This document shows, one piece after another, positions 4,391 to 16,659 of a stretch of 64,000 nt of DNA. The DNA is taken from the IMG/VR virus record IMGVR_UViG_3300037308_000558, positions 2,089 through 66,088 of that record. The stretch is one strand, 5' to 3'. The notes beneath the pieces are model-generated. The model made no database searches, had not been told where the DNA came from, and saw only the letters and a list, made by a program, of their open reading frames with translations. Within the stretch, counting starts at the first letter, position 1, and the number at the start of each line of letters is the position of its first letter. Both the position numbers and the translations under genes were made by a program. The DNA is from a virus. Lineage: Duplodnaviria > Caudoviricetes.

Positions 4391-5262
4391 TGCGTGCTCT
4401 CGTTCTATCAGGCGGCGGTGCCAAGGGTGCTTATCAAGTTGGCGCCCTGGAGAAGTGGATCGAAGACGACGGCGTCAACTACGACGCCTTCATCGGGACG
4501 AGTGTGGGAGCGATCAACAGCGCGTGCCTGGCGCAAGCAGCCCCTGGTTGTCTCAAGCAAGCCTACCTGTGGATGCGCGAGTTGTGGTGGGACCTGGACA
4601 ACTCCAAGATCTACGAAAAGTGGTGCATGGGCGAGCTGGCTGCTCTGTGGAAGCCGTCTGTGTACTGTGCTGCTCCCCTTCGTCAGCTCATCAAGGACCA
4701 CCTGAGCTATGATGCCCTGAACAAGTCGGGTAGGAAGCTCCGGGTGGTGGCCTGCTCCTGGAAGACGGGGCAGAAGGTCGTCGCCACAGAGAAGACAGAC
4801 CACTTGGACGACTGGATCTACGCCAGCGCCTCCCAGCCCATCTTCTTCGACCCGGCCGACATCGACGGCGAGCTCTACACGGACGGTGGCCTGCGGGACA
4901 TCGCGCCCGTGGGTGAGGCCATAGAGCTCGGGGCTGATGAGATCGACGTCATCATCACCGGCGACCCACGTCGTCCCTTCAACTGGGACACGAAGGGCAA
5001 GACCACCGTTCAGTACGCCTTCCACATGGCGGGCATCATGTCGGATGAGATCCTCTTGAACGACATCAAGGTCTGCCTGCTCAAGAACCGCATGGCAGAG
5101 GCGGGGCTGAAGCGCGAGGACGGGACGGACTACAAGCAGGTCAAGATCCGGCTGCTTGTTCCCAGCCGTGGTGTGGGTGACTCGCTTGACTTCTCAGCGG
5201 AGAAGATCCGCGAGATGATCGCATTCGGCTACGAGGACGCTTGCAAGCAGGTTGAGCCATGA
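4390..5262 (+). CDS. patatin-like phospholipase (290 aa; ATG 4390 overlaps the upstream TGA)
   Basis: Glycine loop LSGGGAKGAYQVG, nucleophile elbow GTSVG (GxSxG) and catalytic DGG motif. Confidence 0.92.
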   Translation: MRALVLSGGGAKGAYQVGALEKWIEDDGVNYDAFIGTSVGAINSACLAQAAPGCLKQAYLWMRELWWDLDNSKIYEKWCMGELAALWKPSVYCAAPLRQLIKDHLSYDALNKSGRKLRVVACSWKTGQKVVATEKTDHLDDWIYASASQPIFFDPADIDGELYTDGGLRDIAPVGEAIELGADEIDVIITGDPRRPFNWDTKGKTTVQYAFHMAGIMSDEILLNDIKVCLLKNRMAEAGLKREDGTDYKQVKIRLLVPSRGVGDSLDFSAEKIREMIAFGYEDACKQVEP

Positions 5263-8712: not shown

Positions 8713-9114
8713 TCACCATCTGATGGCCAGCCCGTCGATGTACTCGCCGAGCTTCTCCGGCGGTAAGGTCGCCGCGTAGCGCAGAGCTGTCCCTGCCACG
8801 CAGAGAGCGATGTTGATGAGCGCGTCCGTGCGCGCCCTCGCTCGCTGTTTCTCCACGTAGAACGACAGGCTCTGTAGGAAGAACGTGAGCGGGTGGAGGA
8901 TGGGCTTGTGCGTGGTGTAGTAGGCGCTGCCCACGTAGCCGCACTTCTTGCACACCCACCAACCCGTCTCCGCTTCCCAGTCGATCTCACCGTCGCATAG
9001 CTGGTCGAGTGGACTCGGAGTCCACGTGGGGTCCAACGCGTTGCGCGGTAGGCCCTTACCAAGTCTCCAGGGTTCTTGTTCTGCAAGCCGGGGGAGTGAC
9101 GGGTCGTAGCTCAT
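8713..9114 (-). CDS. hypothetical protein with small Zn-ribbon (133 aa)
   Basis: AAGGAG SD before ATG; LC...WWVCKKCG motif. Confidence 0.65.
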   Translation of the reverse strand: MSYDPSLPRLAEQEPWRLGKGLPRNALDPTWTPSPLDQLCDGEIDWEAETGWWVCKKCGYVGSAYYTTHKPILHPLTFFLQSLSFYVEKQRARARTDALINIALCVAGTALRYAATLPPEKLGEYIDGLAIRW

Positions 9115-9150
9115 GAAGTCTCCTTCTGAGCACTGCGTTCCCGTTGCCGC

Positions 9151-9363
9151 CTATTGCCCAACGGCGACTTCATCCAGCCTGGCTCCTTCTAGTAGGCGCA
9201 GCACCTCCTTTGCGCTCGGCTCGTTGCTCGTCAACAAGCCAAGTTTCGCGGCGACGTCGTTCAGCTCTTGAGGGTCCAACTCCAAGAGCTCGGCCATGTC
9301 GAGCTCGACGACGTCGCTGTACTTCGGGAGCGTACAGCCCGGCCAGACCAGGCCCTCTACGCT
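9151..9363 (-). other. unannotated 70-codon reading frame, probably reached by -1 frameshift from 9357-10259
   Basis: The -1 frame SVEGLVWPGCTLPKYSDVVELDMAELLELDPQELNDVAAKLGLL...VGQ* has strong GC3 bias starting 22 codons before its first ATG; G GGA AAA heptamer at 9363-9369. Confidence 0.65.
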
Positions 9364-10259
9364 TTTCCCTGGGAGGGTCCTCCGCTGATGGCCTGGAGGA
9401 AGCTCTTGACGGTCTCCTCGCCACCGACCTGCAGCACGGCCTGCACCAGGGACTCCATCGGGATGCCCTGCATCTGCGGCGTGGTGATGAGGACGCCGAG
9501 GATCTTGCCCATGATGGCGTTGCCCTCCAGCTGATGGCGGTGGATGGCTTCCAGCATCTTCTGGTTGGCCGCCTGCACCTCGGCGATCTTGGTCAGGACG
9601 TCACCGAGCCCGCTCGTGGCGGGAGCCGTCGGGACGGCGGGAGAGCGGCCGCTGGGGAGCACTGGAGCTGCCACGGGCGCCTGCGGCTGCGCCATGGCGG
9701 GCATCTGCCACTGAGGTGCCTGCATCTGGGGCAGGCTCACAGGCGCTGCCTGCGGGGGCATCTGGGGCATCTGCGCTGCCTGCGGCTGCTGCTGCTGCTG
9801 CTGCTGCTGGAAGACGGGCATCTGTGGCATCCCCATGGGCGGGGATTGCTGCTGGTACGCCGGGGGCTGCATCTGGGGCTGCGCTTGGGGCATCTGCATG
9901 GGCTGCCCAGCAGCGGGTCCCACGGTGGAAGGGATGACCGGTCGGGGGAATTGCGGTGGTTGCATCTGCGTGCTCTCTGGGGTTTCCGTCTGGGGTTGTG
10001 GTTCCGGTTCTGGCATCACGGGGGTGGGCGGCATCGGCTGACCCTGCGCGGGCCACCCTTCCGCGTCTCTCCGCAGCAGCTCTTCACGTAGTCGTTGGCA
10101 CTGCACCTCGTTCGTCGAGGCCAGGAAGGCCTGCTCGTCGTTCGTGCCGTTGAAGATGCCGAGGTGCATCCCGAGTAGGTATCGGCGCCCCCGAGTCCAC
10201 AGCATGAGCTGCTCGATCTCTCGTGGGGCATCGACGCGTGCATCCAAAGGGGCGTTCAT
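9357..10259 (-). CDS. P/Q-rich low-complexity protein (300 aa; ATG 10259)
   Basis: ATGA coupling with 10256-10636; central P/Q/M-rich tract; helical N- and C-terminal segments. Confidence 0.75.
   Translation of the reverse strand: MNAPLDARVDAPREIEQLMLWTRGRRYLLGMHLGIFNGTNDEQAFLASTNEVQCQRLREELLRRDAEGWPAQGQPMPPTPVMPEPEPQPQTETPESTQMQPPQFPRPVIPSTVGPAAGQPMQMPQAQPQMQPPAYQQQSPPMGMPQMPVFQQQQQQQQPQAAQMPQMPPQAAPVSLPQMQAPQWQMPAMAQPQAPVAAPVLPSGRSPAVPTAPATSGLGDVLTKIAEVQAANQKMLEAIHRHQLEGNAIMGKILGVLITTPQMQGIPMESLVQAVLQVGGEETVKSFLQAISGGPSQGKA
9786..9809 (-). repeat. (CAG)8 trinucleotide repeat encoding poly-Gln
   Basis: Eight perfect ctg units on the + strand. Confidence 0.9.
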
Positions 10260-10636
10260 GGTTTGAAGCTCTTCAGGGTGTCGTAGTACCGCTCTTCGGC
10301 GCGTACCGTCTGGTCCGACTTCGTCACGCAGATCATGACTTGGGCGTCCAGACAGCCGAAGCACGGCATGGGGTTGGTGGTCATCATGTCCTTCGCAGGG
10401 CACTTGATCTGCGGCCCAAGCATGCTCCAGTAGGTGCGGATGAAGCCCTGCAGTGCCAAGCGCCAGGCATGGATGGGGTGCTGCTCCTGTCGAAAGGCTG
10501 GGACGTCGCGATCCCCAGTCAGGTACTCCTCCATCTCCTCCCGACTCGCGTTCGGTGGGACGTCATGCCCAGCGCGGAGGTTGAGCTGGTAGAGCTCTGT
10601 GTGGTTCAGCGACGACAAAAGTGTGGATGAAGGCAT
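10256..10636 (-). CDS. hypothetical protein (126 aa)
   Basis: ORF coupled to its neighbours; helical N-terminus LSSLNHTELYQL; C-terminal Cys cluster. Confidence 0.65.
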   Translation of the reverse strand: MPSSTLLSSLNHTELYQLNLRAGHDVPPNASREEMEEYLTGDRDVPAFRQEQHPIHAWRLALQGFIRTYWSMLGPQIKCPAKDMMTTNPMPCFGCLDAQVMICVTKSDQTVRAEERYYDTLKSFKP

Positions 10637-11066
10637 CGACCGGATTGCTCTCTTCGCCTCGCTTCCAGACCCACACGTCCGTGAACTCTTCGGTCTCGGA
10701 CCAGTCCTTCACGGAGGCGAATACGAAGTTCTGCTGGTCTTCGATACCCGTAGCTTCCGCCAGGGCATCTTCGAGTAGCTTGATGCGATTGGTTACGTCA
10801 ACCTTCTTGTACCTGCTTTCGGCCTTGCCTGTCTCGAAGCCCTTGGTGAACAGGGCCTCTTTGCCTTTGAAGGTCACGCGAATGAGCACGGCGTACTCGT
10901 GCTCCTTGCTGAAGAACTTGAGCAGGCTGGGGTACGTCCGTGCGATGAAGGTCTTCGTCTCCGTCTTGTACTCACGCCCGGCCTTGGTGAGCACACGCTT
11001 GTTGTGCACGGTGATGTACGCATTGTTCACCGACGGCGGCACGGAGGGTACGCGCATGTAGATCAC
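10563..11066 (-). CDS. rusA: RusA-like Holliday junction resolvase
   Basis: PPSVNNAY N-terminus and KKVDVTNRIKLLEDAL...IEDQQ, matching the RusA D..N..K...DAL...DD pattern. Confidence 0.8.
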   Translation of the reverse strand: MIYMRVPSVPPSVNNAYITVHNKRVLTKAGREYKTETKTFIARTYPSLLKFFSKEHEYAVLIRVTFKGKEALFTKGFETGKAESRYKKVDVTNRIKLLEDALAEATGIEDQQNFVFASVKDWSETEEFTDVWVWKRGEESNPVDAFIHTFVVAEPHRALPAQPPRWA

Positions 11067-11584
11067 AGGCGTCCCCTCCCTGCTTCCATGCGTCGCTCGC
11101 CTTCGCGCACGTTGAGGTATCGGCTGAACGTGAACACACCCACTTCGGCCTCCTTGAACTGGGCCTCCACGATGAGCTTCTTCTGCTCCAGGACCTGCAG
11201 TGCGTCCGCTAGGGTCATGTAGGCTTCGCTCCCCTCAAGCCCGTCGGACAGGCTCTTCTCGGTCTGCTTCTCTCCCTCGACCTTCACGCGACGCGCCTTC
11301 AGCCTGTACAGGACGCCGAGTCGTCGGATCTTGTTCTCGTACTCAGTGACCCACCCCTTGATGTACGCCAACACCTTGAATGAGTAGGTCTCCCAGCTGG
11401 CGAACTGCGCGAACTGCTGCCCATAACGGGCTTGGTCGGAATGCGTCAGATCGCTTGGGCGTATGCGCGGCATGGGGAAGTCTGGGGGCTCGGGCAGTAC
11501 GAAGCCCAGCCCTGCCAGCTCGTCCGTCACGCTTTGCATCGTGCTCTGTCGGTCGATGCGTGGTTCCGTTGTCCCGTCCGTCAT
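11063..11584 (-). CDS. coiled-coil protein, possible UvsY-like recombination mediator (173 aa)
   Basis: Helical; C-terminal SEAYMTL...LEQKKLIVEAQFKE..V...SR resembles UvsY-type proteins; located next to RecA and nucleases. Start refined to the ATGA overlap. Confidence 0.45.
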   Translation of the reverse strand: MTDGTTEPRIDRQSTMQSVTDELAGLGFVLPEPPDFPMPRIRPSDLTHSDQARYGQQFAQFASWETYSFKVLAYIKGWVTEYENKIRRLGVLYRLKARRVKVEGEKQTEKSLSDGLEGSEAYMTLADALQVLEQKKLIVEAQFKEAEVGVFTFSRYLNVREGERRMEAGRGRL

Positions 11585-12477
11585 GATGTTGGCCATAGGT
11601 TCGGGCTGGTCTTCGTGGCGCTGTGCCCCTTTCGCCTTTTCAGCGATGGCGGGTTGCACGTCCACGCGAACGGGCACCAGCGGCAGAACATGCCCTCTGC
11701 TCTGCCTGGTAGCGTGCTCTTGTTCGCGTGCTCCGTGGCCTCCGTGAAGCGCGGTACGAGCCGCTTGTCCCACACTTCGTCGCTGAATTGGATGAGGTAC
11801 GGCGCAACAGCCTTGGTGAAGTTCGAGTTCGACTTGTTGTAGTAGACGAACCACAACAGGGGTACGTTCAGGGCGGCTTGGTACAGGTGCGCCTGCTCAA
11901 CGTGGTCTGGCTCTGGCGCTCGCAGCTTGTCGAACTCCGGCCCGGACTTCGTCTTGATCTCGACGGCGACGCGAAGGACGGTCTCACCGTTGAGATCGAA
12001 GCAGAAGACACCGTCGCAGCTGGAGTGCATGTTCCAAACGCGCGCGAGCTCTGACACTCCAGGGTGGATGCGCACCTCGGGCATGAAGTGCGCGCTCCAG
12101 CCCGTACCCTTGAAGATGCCCTCGTTGAGCCACGCGCACATGAGCTGGAACTCGTGCTGGAGCATGCCGTGTACGGCGTGACCGATGTTGAACCGCATCT
12201 GCATGTTCACGTCTCGGTCTTGCCCCGTTGGTGGCTTGCGCATCTCCCCGCTGATGCTGTACGTCAGGCGACGTAAGCACTTCGAGATCTCCGAAGCGTG
12301 GATGCCCGGCGCGCGCTCCTTCGATCCGGCCACGTCGACCTGGTACGTGTAGCCGCCGTTGTCTTGGGCTTTCCACTGCTCGTAGTAACCCGACAGCAGG
12401 CTGGCTTGCTGGACGAAGTTGAAGCGCGCCTCCGAGGACAGCGTGCGTAGGTCATCCAGCGTCGTCAGCGTGTACAT
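11581..12477 (-). CDS. Cas4/AddB-like PD-(D/E)XK exonuclease (298 aa)
   Basis: HASEISKC, SCDG, VEIKT, QAHLY and C-terminal CRWCPFAWTC (1+3 Cys Fe-S staple). Confidence 0.85.
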   Translation of the reverse strand: MYTLTTLDDLRTLSSEARFNFVQQASLLSGYYEQWKAQDNGGYTYQVDVAGSKERAPGIHASEISKCLRRLTYSISGEMRKPPTGQDRDVNMQMRFNIGHAVHGMLQHEFQLMCAWLNEGIFKGTGWSAHFMPEVRIHPGVSELARVWNMHSSCDGVFCFDLNGETVLRVAVEIKTKSGPEFDKLRAPEPDHVEQAHLYQAALNVPLLWFVYYNKSNSNFTKAVAPYLIQFSDEVWDKRLVPRFTEATEHANKSTLPGRAEGMFCRWCPFAWTCNPPSLKRRKGHSATKTSPNLWPTS

Positions 12478-12961
12478 GCTTCTCCCATTCCTTTCGGGGT
12501 ATGAGCACCCACTCGTCGCGTACCTGCAGCGTTCTGGGTGCTCGAAACTGCACCTCGAATACCGGCACTTCGAGGCCCACGCATTCACTGCGGATCTTCA
12601 GCAAGTCCTTGTACTCGACACGGAACGACTCCGTAGACGTGTACTTGTTCTCGACTCGATACCTACCGCGGATGCGTCCATCGCTCTTGTACCCTGGGCG
12701 AGACCCAGATCCGGGTTGGGCGTTCCCGCCGAGCTCCTCGATGCGCTTCTCCTGCTTCTTGGAGATGCGCTTGCGTCGTTGGGGCCCCGTGCGCAGCAGC
12801 GTGCCGTGGGCCACGTCGAAGAAACCTACAACGCCGCCCTGCAGGAGGCTTCCCATCGTCGTTTCGATGGCAACCTCCTGTCCCTCTGCCCTGAGTCGTA
12901 GAATGACGCCGTCGTAGGCGTGGTTCGACGCCTCCAACCGTGCCGTCACTGAAACAGGCAT
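12452..12961 (-). CDS. Hjc-like PD-(D/E)XK nuclease/resolvase
   Basis: QPGSGSRPGYKSDG...VENKYT...SF motif set. Confidence 0.65.
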   Translation of the reverse strand: MPVSVTARLEASNHAYDGVILRLRAEGQEVAIETTMGSLLQGGVVGFFDVAHGTLLRTGPQRRKRISKKQEKRIEELGGNAQPGSGSRPGYKSDGRIRGRYRVENKYTSTESFRVEYKDLLKIRSECVGLEVPVFEVQFRAPRTLQVRDEWVLIPRKEWEKHVHADDAG

Positions 12962-14220
12962 TGGTACCCCGCTGCTGCCAGCACTTCACGTCGAAGGACC
13001 ATCTCGTGCTCCAGGCTGGTCGTCAGGAGCTCGCGCAGTGCCTTCTGCGTGTTGCGCGTGAAGTCATCGAGCACGATGCCGGTGCCGTGCTGCACCACGA
13101 CTACCTTCTTGTCCGTTCGCACGATACCGTAGCGAATGCCCGCAGCGATGAGGTCACCGATGTCGTCGGTGCCGCCCATGGCGTAGTAGAAGGCCGCCTC
13201 ACCCACTCTGTTGTCGAAGGTGCCGGCCGATCCCTTGTCCGTCTTCCAGTGGATCATCTTGCCGTAGGCTTCCTTGTTCTCCCCCTCGCCATGCTTCAGC
13301 ACCTTGGCGTCGTGCAGCACGAGGTTGATGAGTCCGTAGTGCTTGCCCGTCCACCCACCAGCGGGGATGGCTGCAGGAGCATAGGGTGTGGTCGGTGTGC
13401 GCTCCGGGTTGGACCGGAACTGCTTGGTGAAGATGAGTGTGGTTTGGTTCGGCATCGTGCGGCCGAAGCCCGTCGTTTCTGGGATGTAGAGCTTGTAGAA
13501 GCGCCCCATCATGTTGGCATGCGCGGCGCGCATCTCGTGCTCGTTGAACGTCTTGTCGGCGTTTACTTCGGGCAGCAGCCCCTGTTCGGAGTCGCAGCCG
13601 ATGAGGCTGAAGGCGTTGGTGCGCACGCATTCGAGGATGGACTGCAGGATGTCCTCTCCCGTGGCCCCACGGATGATGTAGAAGTCGCCCACGCGTTGCT
13701 TGAGGTAGGCGAGCTCCTCAGTCGTGAACGGGGGCATGGCTCTGTAGCTGCGGAGCTCGTTCCACTGCTCAATCATGAGGTCGGGGATGGGGATGCGCAG
13801 ACCCACGTTCACGGCCACGTCGTAGGGGAACTGGCGTTCGGATAGGGCGAAGGCCAGGCGGCAGTCGTTGCCGTAGATCTTCTGCTGCATCGCCATGGTC
13901 TTGAGCAGCAGCCACGTCTTGCCGCTGTTCTCGGGGCCGGCGATGAAGCTCATGCCGCCTGCAGGGAAGCCTCCACCGAGCGTGATGTCGCAGTCGATGA
14001 GCCCCGTGGGCCGGCGCAGGATGTACGTGTTCGGTGCCTCGTCGGCGAGGACGATGTGGCGTTCCTCTCCGTCGTTGAGGGAGTTGGCCAGGGCGCGGAT
14101 GAGCAGGTCCTTCTGCGGGGCATCGAGGTGCCGGAGCGCAGCAATCTTCGCCAGCTCCGGCGGCTTCTCCTGCTTCTCCTTCGGTGGCTTCTTCGCTTTC
14201 GACTTCCGCTTCATCACCAT
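12946..14220 (-). CDS. recA: RecA/UvsX-family recombinase
   Basis: CDITLGGGFPAGGMSFIAGPENSGKT (Walker A), IGCDS (Walker B), LIFTKQFR, GGWTGKHY. Confidence 0.9.
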   Translation of the reverse strand: MVMKRKSKAKKPPKEKQEKPPELAKIAALRHLDAPQKDLLIRALANSLNDGEERHIVLADEAPNTYILRRPTGLIDCDITLGGGFPAGGMSFIAGPENSGKTWLLLKTMAMQQKIYGNDCRLAFALSERQFPYDVAVNVGLRIPIPDLMIEQWNELRSYRAMPPFTTEELAYLKQRVGDFYIIRGATGEDILQSILECVRTNAFSLIGCDSEQGLLPEVNADKTFNEHEMRAAHANMMGRFYKLYIPETTGFGRTMPNQTTLIFTKQFRSNPERTPTTPYAPAAIPAGGWTGKHYGLINLVLHDAKVLKHGEGENKEAYGKMIHWKTDKGSAGTFDNRVGEAAFYYAMGGTDDIGDLIAAGIRYGIVRTDKKVVVVQHGTGIVLDDFTRNTQKALRELLTTSLEHEMVLRREVLAAAGYQCLFQ

Positions 14221-14394: not shown

Positions 14395-14719
14395 GGCTCT
14401 TCTCCTTCAGCAGCTCCTTCAGAACTGCGCTCTTTCGAAAGTAGACACGTAGGCCCTTGTCGAGGCTCACTACCCTTGTACCCCTTCGGCCCCCCGGCTT
14501 TCCAGTCCCGCTGATCAGGTGGACCTCCCGTCCCTTGCCTACGTGGCTGACGGTGAAGCGGCCGAGGCCGTCGACACCTACAGCGCCTTGCTCTGCTAGC
14601 AGGATGCACAGCTGCCGCACGAACTCGGTGGTGATGGCGCGCACCACCTTGGACCGTCGTACACTGTCCATCCCGAGCTCGTGCGCCACCCGCGCGTCGA
14701 TGTAGGACTTGTGCTTCAC
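14345..14719 (-). CDS. HU/IHF-like DNA-binding protein (124 aa; GTG 14719)
   Basis: IDARVAHELG...LLAEQGAVGVDGLGRFTV...RVYFRKSAVLKELL follows the HU fold pattern; GTGA coupling with polA. Confidence 0.75.
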   Translation of the reverse strand: MKHKSYIDARVAHELGMDSVRRSKVVRAITTEFVRQLCILLAEQGAVGVDGLGRFTVSHVGKGREVHLISGTGKPGGRRGTRVVSLDKGLRVYFRKSAVLKELLKEKSHERREQRRGDDETRCG

Positions 14720-16659
14720 TTTGCAACGCCCCAGCTGGCCCCTTTGCCCGAGCTCACTTCGAGGGGCACGTCCAGGTCGCACGGGAATGGGTGCTCCATG
14801 AGCTCGACGAGTTGGGGCATCACCTCGTCTACGCTCTCGGTGGGGCACTCGAACACGAGCTCGTCGTGTACCTGCATGAGCATGCGGCAGCCGTAGTGCT
14901 TCTCGAAGTCCATGTTCTCGATGTGGATCTGGGCCATACGGCACACGTCCGCAGCCGTGCCTTGGATGGGCGTGTTCACAGCCTTGCGCTCACCTTCCGC
15001 ACGCTCCCTGTTGCTCGCGCTGCGCATCTCGGGGAGGTTACGGCGCCGCCCCAAAAGCGTGAACGCGTAGCCCGTCTGCTCGGCTTCGCGCACGGCCTCC
15101 TCGAAGAAGCCACCGACGGCGGGGTACATGGTCTTGTACTTCTCGATCTTCTCGTCGGCTTCCTGCTTCGTGATGCCCAGCTGACGCGCGAGCTTGTTGG
15201 CACCCATGCCGTAGTTCAGCCCGAAGCCGATGGTCTTGGCTACGGTTCGTGCGTGCAGGCAGTGCTTCACGTAGTCCGTGATGGCGCTCTTGTCGAGGGC
15301 TCCATCCTTGACCTGCTTGTCGGTCTTCTTCGCCTTGACCAGGTCTTCGTACGGTAGGTCGTACATGAGCGACGCATTGCCCATGTGGATGTCCCACTTG
15401 TTGTTGAAGACCTGGATCATGCGCGGTTCTTGCGACGCCGCGGCGAGGAGGCGCATCTCCAGCTGCTCGTAGTCAGCCGCGATGATGGTGTAGCCCGGCG
15501 GCGCGATGAAGGCGCTGCGGATACCCCACTTGTCGTTCTCGGGACGTGGGATGTTCTGCAGGTTGGGCTCGCTGGAGCTCAGGCGTCCCGTGCGGGCGAC
15601 GTCTTGGTTGTACCGCGTGTGCACGCGGTCGTTGCCGTCGAGTATGGTGCTCAAGCCCAAGAGGTAGGTGTTCAACAGCTTCGAGAACTCACGGTGCTTC
15701 AGCACCAGCGCAGCCTCCTCGACCTGGTGCTTGTAGTGTTGCAGGAATGCCTCATCCGTGGACGCGGAGCCGCTCTTGGTGACCTTGATGGGCTTGAGCC
15801 CCAAGGCGTTGAAGAAGAGCTCTTGGAGCTGCTTCGGGCTCTGCATGTTGATGGGGCGTCCGCACTTCTTGAAGAACTTCTTCTCGATGGCCTTGACGTC
15901 CTTCTCGGCCTGCACGGCTGCATCCTCCAGCCGCTTCTTGTCGAGGAGTACGCCTCGCCGCTCCATGCGCCACAGGACCTTCGTGTAGGGCATCTCGGTC
16001 TTGTGGAAGAGGTCCCACAAGGTGCGGATGTACGGGTACCGGTTCTGGTAGAGCGAGTACGTCGGCGCGCTCACCAGCTGACGGAGTAGCTCCTCGAACA
16101 CCTGCAGCGTCACCCAAGCGTCGTTAGCGGCGTACTGGACGAGCAGGTCCATGTTCTGCGCTTCGGCCTTGCGGATCATCTCCTCGGCCGATTGCCGCTT
16201 TCCGATCTTGCCGAAGGTGTCCTCGAAGTCGGCGTAGGTCCACCCGAGCAGGTGCTGTGCCATCAGCTTCAGGTTGTGGCGCATGTCCTCGTAGAGAAGG
16301 GCGTGCATGACCTGGGTGTCGATCAGGTTGCCGGCGATCTCGATGCCCACGTTGGCGAGGATGTGCGCGTCGTACTTGGCGTTGGCGAACAGCCAGTTCT
16401 TGCCCTGGTCTGCGAAGACGTGCGCGAAGCGCGGCAGTAGCTCGGCATGTACCGTGAAGCGCTTACCACCCTCGTCCGTTCGCCAGGCCGTGGACCAGTA
16501 GAGTGGGATGTCCTTCCACAGGCACAGGCCTGTGGTCTCGGTGTCGAGGGAGGCTACCTTCGCAGCGCTCAGCTCGTTCGCGAAGTTCTGGAGCTCATCG
16601 GCGGAGCTCGACGCGCATAGGTAGGAAGCGTTGGGTAGATTGATGTTCCAGCTAGTCAT
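14716..16659 (-). CDS. polA: family A DNA polymerase (3'-5' exonuclease + polymerase, no 5'-3' exonuclease)
   Basis: ExoI LDTETTG, ExoII NAKYD, ExoIII YAANDA; TGRLSS, motif A ADYEQLEMR, motif B AKTIGFGLNYG, motif C QVHDELVFE. Confidence 0.97.
   Translation of the reverse strand: MTSWNINLPNASYLCASSSADELQNFANELSAAKVASLDTETTGLCLWKDIPLYWSTAWRTDEGGKRFTVHAELLPRFAHVFADQGKNWLFANAKYDAHILANVGIEIAGNLIDTQVMHALLYEDMRHNLKLMAQHLLGWTYADFEDTFGKIGKRQSAEEMIRKAEAQNMDLLVQYAANDAWVTLQVFEELLRQLVSAPTYSLYQNRYPYIRTLWDLFHKTEMPYTKVLWRMERRGVLLDKKRLEDAAVQAEKDVKAIEKKFFKKCGRPINMQSPKQLQELFFNALGLKPIKVTKSGSASTDEAFLQHYKHQVEEAALVLKHREFSKLLNTYLLGLSTILDGNDRVHTRYNQDVARTGRLSSSEPNLQNIPRPENDKWGIRSAFIAPPGYTIIAADYEQLEMRLLAAASQEPRMIQVFNNKWDIHMGNASLMYDLPYEDLVKAKKTDKQVKDGALDKSAITDYVKHCLHARTVAKTIGFGLNYGMGANKLARQLGITKQEADEKIEKYKTMYPAVGGFFEEAVREAEQTGYAFTLLGRRRNLPEMRSASNRERAEGERKAVNTPIQGTAADVCRMAQIHIENMDFEKHYGCRMLMQVHDELVFECPTESVDEVMPQLVELMEHPFPCDLDVPLEVSSGKGASWGVAK

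Follow-up and report, generated by a model that had tools for sequence, protein, structure and literature searches.

A probable, conserved −1 ribosomal frameshift in a new, non-tail phage gene family

The DNA considered here is a 64,000-nucleotide stretch, hereafter the window, of the IMG/VR virus record IMGVR_UViG_3300037308_000558 (Caudoviricetes), and the element in question is a candidate −1 programmed ribosomal frameshift (PRF) at the very end of a gene for a 300-amino-acid (aa) protein, P0001. The gene lies on the minus strand (10259..9357), encodes a protein ending ..SGGPSQGKA and closes with a TAG stop at 9359-9357. Read codon by codon its end is CAG (9371-9369), GGA (9368-9366), AAA (9365-9363), GCG and TAG (9359-9357), which places an in-frame slippery heptamer of the X XXY YYZ type, G GGA AAA (9369-9363, minus strand), one codon before the stop. 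The −1 frame, which reads GGG AAA AGC GTA GAG GGC CTG GTC TGG CCG GGC TGT ..., is open from the AGC at 9363 for 70 codons (9154..9363, minus strand; SVEGLV-WPGCTLPKYSDVVELD-M...AVGQ) and then meets a TAG at 9153-9151, with the next gene starting at 9114. Slippage at the heptamer would thus join 299 residues to 70 and yield a 369-aa product, with the junction ..SQGK followed by SVEGLVWPGCTLPK. A first-pass annotation of this DNA had described the heptamer with its position before the stop, the extent of the open −1 frame, the isoform sizes of 300 and 369 aa and the junction peptide, and our reading of the sequence agrees with it on all four.

Codon choice at the heptamer can be compared with usage in the rest of the window. 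Among the 18,121 codons of the window's long open reading frames (ORFs), GGA accounts for 12% of Gly codons and AAA for 5.5% of Lys codons, in-frame GGGAAAA occurs a single time, and in-frame X XXY YYZ heptamers number 39, a background of about 0.2%. The probability of xxG GGA AAA, given an x-G-K peptide, is 0.0025 in the window, and 0.0044 and 0.012 in two related phage lineages introduced below (L012 and L021, respectively). Judged by these frequencies, the codon choice at the heptamer is more than chance, and is informative in the window alone. Transcriptional slippage was considered as another use for the site and rejected, as a run of four A is too short for it.

The extension itself has a GC content by codon position of 0.71/0.36/0.79, a coding-like pattern typical of coding sequence. 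Its first and only canonical start is an ATG at 9295..9297 (minus strand), and as the first-pass annotation had stated, no ATG, GTG or TTG codon stands earlier in the −1 frame. That annotation had also counted 19 of 20 G/C-ending codons before this ATG; the high share stands, while the count does not, since we find 20 of 22 between the heptamer and ATG 9297. The codons for the start of a conserved block, WPGC (TGG CCG GGC TGT, 9334..9345, minus strand), lie 16 codons upstream of the ATG, so a product initiated there would be 48 aa long and would lack the WPGCxLPKxxDVVE block. No Shine-Dalgarno (SD)-like sequence is visible just upstream of ATG 9297. Two further features were set aside as evidence. 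A long open −1 frame is unremarkable at 63% GC, where upstream of the W of WPGC the frame runs 85 codons without a stop, and the missing NTG codons upstream are trivial, given that an NTG in the −1 frame requires a Cys or Trp codon in the 0 frame.

Homologues of the extension allowed us to ask which part of it is conserved. A phmmer search with the 69 residues after the stop, exhaustive over 1.84 billion representatives, returned eight small proteins of 48-81 aa homologous to the −1 ORF. Most of them start [M/V/L]WPGCxLPK..D.VE, and the equivalent block of the window, VWPGCTLPKYSDVVELD, precedes ATG 9297. The best-kept motif of the domain is WPGCxLPKxxDVVE, in which W, P, G, C, L and P are invariant (alignment A7), and because this block lies upstream, translation begun at ATG 9297 would leave out what is most conserved in the domain. 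Conservation begins at the W; the stretch of 5-9 codons that separates it from the heptamer differs among lineages in both length and sequence, as would be expected of a linker. Lacking a start codon, the small domain is scarcely represented in protein databases. Two small-ORF calls are truncated, P0014 (48 aa) and P0011 (60 aa), and therefore appear to have no start codon either; they adjoin homologues of the 300-aa protein (P0004, which is 80% identical, and P0008, respectively), the pairs P0004/P0014 and P0008/P0011 being matched only by equal source-sequence sizes of 6975 and 4315.

Relatives at the DNA level came from IMG/VR, searched with degenerate nucleotide patterns for WPGCxLPK, WPGCxLPR and WPGC-N18-DVVE that all leave the heptamer out, and true pattern matches were told from chance ones by translation. 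Together with the window they make up ten distinct phage lineages, on contigs of 54-196 kb, whose upstream proteins are only 20-30% identical; the upstream ORFs of the pattern matches all fit the family profile, with E-values of 1e-7 to 1e-21 at Z = 1e6. In nine of the ten lineages an in-frame X XXY YYZ heptamer stands 0-3 codons before the 0-frame stop. It is GGGAAAA in seven of them, where the 0 frame ends CAG GGA AAA GCG TAG (window), CAG GGA AAA GGC TGA (L012 = L003), CCG GGA AAA GCC GGG TAG (L021), CCG GGA AAA GGC TGA (L029), GCG GGA AAA TAG (L071), CAG GGA AAA GGC TAA (L077) and ATG GGA AAA GCC TAG (L098 = L112). It is GGGAAAC in one (L030, GCG GGA AAC GAA GAG TAG) and GGGGGGA in one (L117, TTG GGG GGA CAA CAG GGC TGA). 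The tenth lineage, L020, ends CAG AAG AAA GCC TAA and has no canonical heptamer. Conservation of the heptamer in homologues, which the first-pass annotation had proposed as a check, is therefore found at the nucleotide level in nine of ten lineages, with the downstream ORF always in the −1 frame, an outcome that favors the frameshift.

The arrangement around the site is equally regular. An ORF beginning with WPGC lies in the −1 frame, 5-9 codons past the site, in all ten lineages, and between site and W none of the ten has a stop or an ATG, GTG or TTG codon. The codon preceding the W is GTC, ATC, CTC, GCC, ACG or TTA, and in three lineages (L021, L030 and L020) the absence extends to CTG and ATH codons before the W. 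In all nine heptamer-bearing lineages the −1 frame is open from the heptamer beyond the 0-frame stop. As a separate observation, in L020 (10760-10990, plus strand) the 0-frame end follows a 20-aa tail after an internal ..GTGKA, and its G AAG AAA would need a G.U pair at the first codon position to re-pair as GAA GAA.

The end of the upstream protein carries the same signal at the protein level. Seven homologues of the 300-aa protein, 288-327 aa long and down to 32% identical, end in [Q/P/K]GK[A/G] or GK, and G298 and K299 are invariant at the extreme C-terminus in eight homologues down to the same identity. Further members, ending GGK, LGKG and SGNG, came from a profile search, and a C-terminal comparison of 16 family proteins puts G-[K/N] within two residues of the stop in 15. 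The K-to-N change is seen in L030 at the DNA level and in P0028 at the protein level, and the L030 site, GGGAAAC, stays slippery. Because this change keeps slipperiness, and because the L117 site is GGGGGGA, the sequences fit a constraint that acts on the RNA rather than on the protein. The L030 locus (4397-5056, plus strand) differs from the window in other respects: its linker is G/A/K-rich rather than P/Q/M-rich, and the C-terminus of its product is an acidic tail (..EEDEEPEAGNEE). Linker composition therefore appears to drift while the domain ends and the frameshift site persist.

Taken together, these comparisons make it probable that this new, non-tail family of phage genes uses a conserved −1 PRF. 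The mechanism is one already known; the gene family and the appended domain are new. From the sequence we infer the slippage itself, as well as the synthesis of both the 300- and the 369-aa isoform. A ribosome at G GGA AAA (9369-9363) would hold tRNA-Gly in the P site and tRNA-Lys in the A site, and a fraction of ribosomes would re-pair one base back, on GGG AAA, miss the TAG one codon later and read on for 70 codons. The slipped product would be the 369-aa isoform with an additional C-terminal module, made up of WPGC and a helix-extended-helix fold (SAP/HeH-like), and ribosomes that do not slip would terminate to give the 300-aa form. The site would thereby fix how much of the short protein is made relative to the long one, in the manner of lambda gpG/gpGT. 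Slippage is possibly stimulated by the nearby stop codon and by a GGAGG before the heptamer; the added domain would probably bind nucleic acid, within a protein of the replication/recombination block.

There are several candidate stimulators around the site. The two inverted repeats that the first-pass annotation had listed, GGCC-6-GGCC (9354-9351 / 9344-9341) and GCTGTAC-9-GTACAGC (9338-9332 / 9322-9316, both minus strand), are where it had placed them, and their proposed role as downstream structure is not upheld: compared with dinucleotide shuffles, the 73 nucleotides (nt) past the heptamer fold at -28.5 kcal/mol versus -27.9 ± 3.3 (z = -0.17), and the stem positions are not conserved. Hairpins start 8-24 nt after the site across lineages, and the 7-bp stem of the window starts at 24 nt, further away than the usual heptamer-to-stem spacing of 5-9 nt. 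Upstream, a GGAGG (9379..9383, minus strand) 9 nt before the heptamer is a possible internal SD stimulator of the dnaX type. Four of the nine lineages with a heptamer (window, L012, L021 and L030) have a GAGG 9-17 nt on its 5′ side, against a background of about 3.5% per site and with a distance window chosen post hoc, and the GAGG was not found at this distance in L029, L071, L077, L098 or L117; as a stimulator it is only suggestive. The feature that is constant at the site is the 0-frame stop, 0-3 codons downstream in all lineages. A second SD-like sequence, GAGGG, overlaps the TAG stop of the window (9351-9357, minus strand) and lies 4 nt before the GTC codon that precedes the W. In some database homologues an ATG, GTG or TTG occupies precisely this codon, and the GAGGG region may be an initiation site in some lineages.

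Several observations weigh against a conserved frameshift. L020 keeps the downstream ORF without a canonical heptamer, yet it also lacks a start codon. In no lineage is the downstream fold better than shuffled controls (z of -0.17 to -1.35), and an in-frame fused form was not found among the 1.84 billion representatives. Six database homologues (P0015-17 and P0019-21) start with M, V or L at or just before the W, so that independent initiation is possible in some lineages with such a residue there; this set of start-bearing homologues is biased, as gene callers require a start codon. Lastly, G_GG.A_AA.A is described as inefficient in E. coli by earlier studies cited in PMC4066793.

An unlikely explanation is that the small ORF is a separate gene whose translation begins at ATG 9297, or, through re-initiation or coupling, at a non-canonical codon shortly past the upstream stop (CTG 9351, for instance), while the GK[A/G] end of the upstream protein is kept for a reason at the protein level. 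Database homologues are indeed called as stand-alone proteins of 60-81 aa, four of them beginning exactly one codon before the W (MWPGC, VWPGC, LWPGC), and both the GAGGG over the window's stop and the lack of a fused homologue in the representative library suit such a gene. A start codon before the W is nonetheless absent from every one of the ten DNA lineages, and from three of them even in the extended sense of CTG or ATH; a start at ATG 9297 would delete the most conserved motif, and the GAGGG is just 1 nt from CTG 9351. An M, V or L before the W fits a hydrophobic position that is sometimes by chance a start codon, and gene calling selects such cases. A protein-level constraint on GK would also leave unexplained both the rare GGA and AAA codons in genomes of 55-63% GC and the K-to-N change that keeps GGGAAAC.

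It is very unlikely that the heptamer is there by chance or is constrained for another purpose (for example, as a regulatory or RNA signal unrelated to recoding), with the WPGC region a decaying, unexpressed remnant in the start-less lineages. In favor of this reading, L020 keeps its ORF with neither heptamer nor start codon. A remnant would gather stops, however, and none occurs from heptamer to ORF end in any lineage; moreover, the WPGC domain is conserved at the protein level even though the upstream proteins share only 20-30% identity, shows coding-type GC by codon position and is modeled confidently, with a predicted local distance difference test (pLDDT) score of 83. We consider it extremely improbable that the true gene is a single 369-aa ORF whose frame was broken by an indel of assembly or sequencing, or by a recent pseudogenizing mutation. 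One metagenomic contig alone cannot exclude such an error, but a sequencing indel is argued against because ten assemblies, independent of one another and from deeply diverged phages, show the same −1 relation, nine of them with the heptamer near the 0-frame stop. In the databases, eight proteins terminate after GK[A/G]; four consecutive A are not a homopolymer prone to errors, and the exhaustive search yielded no fused version.

The closest known system to the proposed frameshift is the lambda G/GT pair, whose shift is conserved in long-tailed phages. Lambda G/GT slips at G GGA AAG without strong structure. The heptamer is nearly the same here (G GGA AAR) and likewise sits at the extreme 3′ end of the ORF before it; in both systems the downstream ORF is without its own start codon, and a strong RNA structure would be required in neither. 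In lambda, the frameshift occurs near the 3′ end of g, the arrangement is kept across phages of little protein similarity, and a fixed ratio of the short to the C-terminally extended form is expected (PMC5009743), all of which would have counterparts here. The gene family is different, as neither ORF has a tail assembly chaperone (TAC) match in Pfam or PHROG at E <= 0.01, and so is the neighborhood, since TAC genes lie between those for the major tail and tape measure proteins whereas the gene here follows RusA, a Cas4-like exonuclease, a RecA-like protein and PolA. On both family membership and gene position, the first-pass description of a non-tail gene is borne out. The appended part differs as well, being a putative SAP/HeH-like module of 60-70 aa where lambda has the T domain that binds the tail shaft.

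Other systems share single features with this one. T3 gene 10 and Lactobacillus phage A2 append C-terminal Ig-like domains by frameshift (Fraser et al., as summarized in PMC5009743). On that summary, these too add a small autonomous domain by −1 PRF to a fraction of the molecules of a phage protein; they concern virion proteins, however, and the frameshift there is interchangeable with in-frame fusion between phages, a fusion not found here. E. coli dnaX (tau/gamma) and the insertion sequences (IS) IS3 and IS911 use the same bacterial type of X XXY YYZ motif, and bacterial IS elements shift on G_GG.A_AA.A and G_GG.A_AA.C, among other heptamers, both of modest efficiency in E. coli (PMC4066793). 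The window's candidate internal SD-like stimulator would recall that of dnaX, and the SD-like element is absent in five of nine lineages. The dnaX shift truncates the protein where the one proposed here would extend it, and in contrast to dnaX, IS3 and IS911 no conserved downstream hairpin or pseudoknot was found in our lineages. In SEA-PHAGES, 2397 of 2476 joined genes are tail assembly chaperones (PMC10885494); nearly all annotated phage frameshifts are thus of this kind, and the family described here is unrelated to them.

Structure prediction suggests how the two isoforms would differ. In the AlphaFold2 (AF2) model of P0001, an N-terminal helical domain (residues ~7-67, pLDDT about 90) is followed by a disordered, P/Q/M-rich linker (~70-215) and a low-confidence C-terminal helical region (218-291) of one long helix and two short ones. 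The extension, modeled with AlphaFold from alignment A6, is predicted as two helices joined by an extended loop. Its top structural match is the Rho N-domain 1a62 (Z 4.5, root-mean-square deviation (rmsd) 2.2, 44 residues aligned), followed by the FAN1 SAP region and the SAP and LEM domains of Hcc-1, MKL1, Ku70 and SIZ1, all of them below significance; matches in the VIA search reach a Z of only 3-4.5, and those in Foldseek have E > 1. In a profile search of the PDB the best match is the SIZ1 SAP domain (E 0.32), and two small-ORF homologues have weak Rho_N matches in Pfam (E 0.012-0.046). As modeled, the extension may resemble SAP, LEM, HeH and Rho_N domains in its two helices and extended loop, and it differs from them in the N-terminal WPGCxLPK, which has no counterpart in those families. 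The extra C-terminal domain of the first-pass annotation is indeed conserved, and its description as just helical gives way to a helix-extended-helix model with weak SAP/LEM/Rho_N-like matches.

The N-terminal domain of P0001 has a similar, weak best match in the VIA search, again Rho 1a62 (Z 6.5, rmsd 2.1, 48 residues aligned); the search with the full P0001 model otherwise gave only generic helical matches, and the ESM Atlas held no usable match for the N-domain. The N-domain (window 10050-10259) and the extension (9154-9300, both minus strand) hit the same templates, Rho 1a62 residues 1-48, 6mzm_A 992-1035 and 8fn4_2, and share the pattern L..L....L..hA..LGh, so that by their models they may be two copies of one fold. 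Homology between them is not supported by profile comparison: hhalign pairs residues 21-45 of the extension with 14-38 of the protein, at E = 0.081 and a probability below 1%. By these models the long isoform would gain a second helix-extended-helix module, probably one that binds nucleic acid. In two other proteins, P0012 and P0013 (726 and 739 aa, one with a SET domain), 8-10 tandem repeats at 53-residue spacing resemble residues 12-52 of the extension at 34-37% identity per repeat; these repeats are probably unrelated or convergent.

One further hypothesis for the use of two isoforms, which is speculative and which we rate as improbable, concerns valence. The short isoform would have one HeH-like nucleic-acid-binding domain, at its N-terminus, and the long isoform one at each end, with which it could bridge or cross-link DNA, and the PRF ratio would tune a DNA-organizing or condensate-like replication compartment. 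If this were true, frameshifting would set the valence of a disordered, P/Q-rich phage protein, in a clade of uncultivated phages of roughly 100-200 kb that encode their own RNA polymerase, and, among conserved recoding signals, the site would be the first to lie in a phage replication-block gene and to serve the control of architecture instead of virion assembly.

The wider interest of the proposed frameshift does not depend on valence. A canonical −1 site is kept across deeply diverged large phages in a non-tail family without a Pfam or PHROG model, and its downstream ORF is one that gene callers systematically miss or truncate. The natural series of sites, GGGAAAA, GGGAAAC, GGGGGGA and one lineage without a heptamer, offers a test bed for what slippage needs in high-GC hosts. 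The comparison points to a protein of two isoforms, with and without a SAP/HeH-like domain, whose role in phage DNA metabolism is testable.

Neither the 300-aa protein nor the −1 ORF has a Pfam, PHROG or PDB sequence match (with the same cut-off of E <= 0.01 for Pfam and PHROG), and the IMG/VR search for relative loci found no close relatives of either. Against GenBank phages, blastn and tblastn gave no match to the 300-aa gene, and PolA is only ~33% identical there. No prophage copy was seen in species-representative genomes, where the scan gave chance matches only, and two scans of metagenome contigs found nothing with patterns that were poor and of low complexity.

With CheckV estimating 35% completeness for its 66-kb IMG/VR viral contig, of which the window makes up the greater part, the source phage is a large one. 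The replication/recombination block upstream of the frameshift gene comprises, all on the minus strand, PolA (14716-16659), a RecA/UvsX-like protein (12946-14220), the Cas4-like exonuclease (11581-12588) and RusA (10563-11066), and a 126-aa gene sits between RusA and the 300-aa gene. The order RusA, an unknown gene of ~130 aa, the linker-rich protein and the WPGC ORF is common to the window (8713-11066, minus strand) and L012 (1683-3550, plus strand), whose proteins are just ~26% identical in this shared order. The ATG at 10259 that opens the 300-aa gene overlaps the stop of the upstream gene as ATGA. A database copy, P0003 (270 aa), begins instead at a later ATG, 10169 (window 10169-10259, minus strand). 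On sequence grounds the start at 10259 appears to be the better call, because of the ATGA overlap and because homologues align from residue 1.

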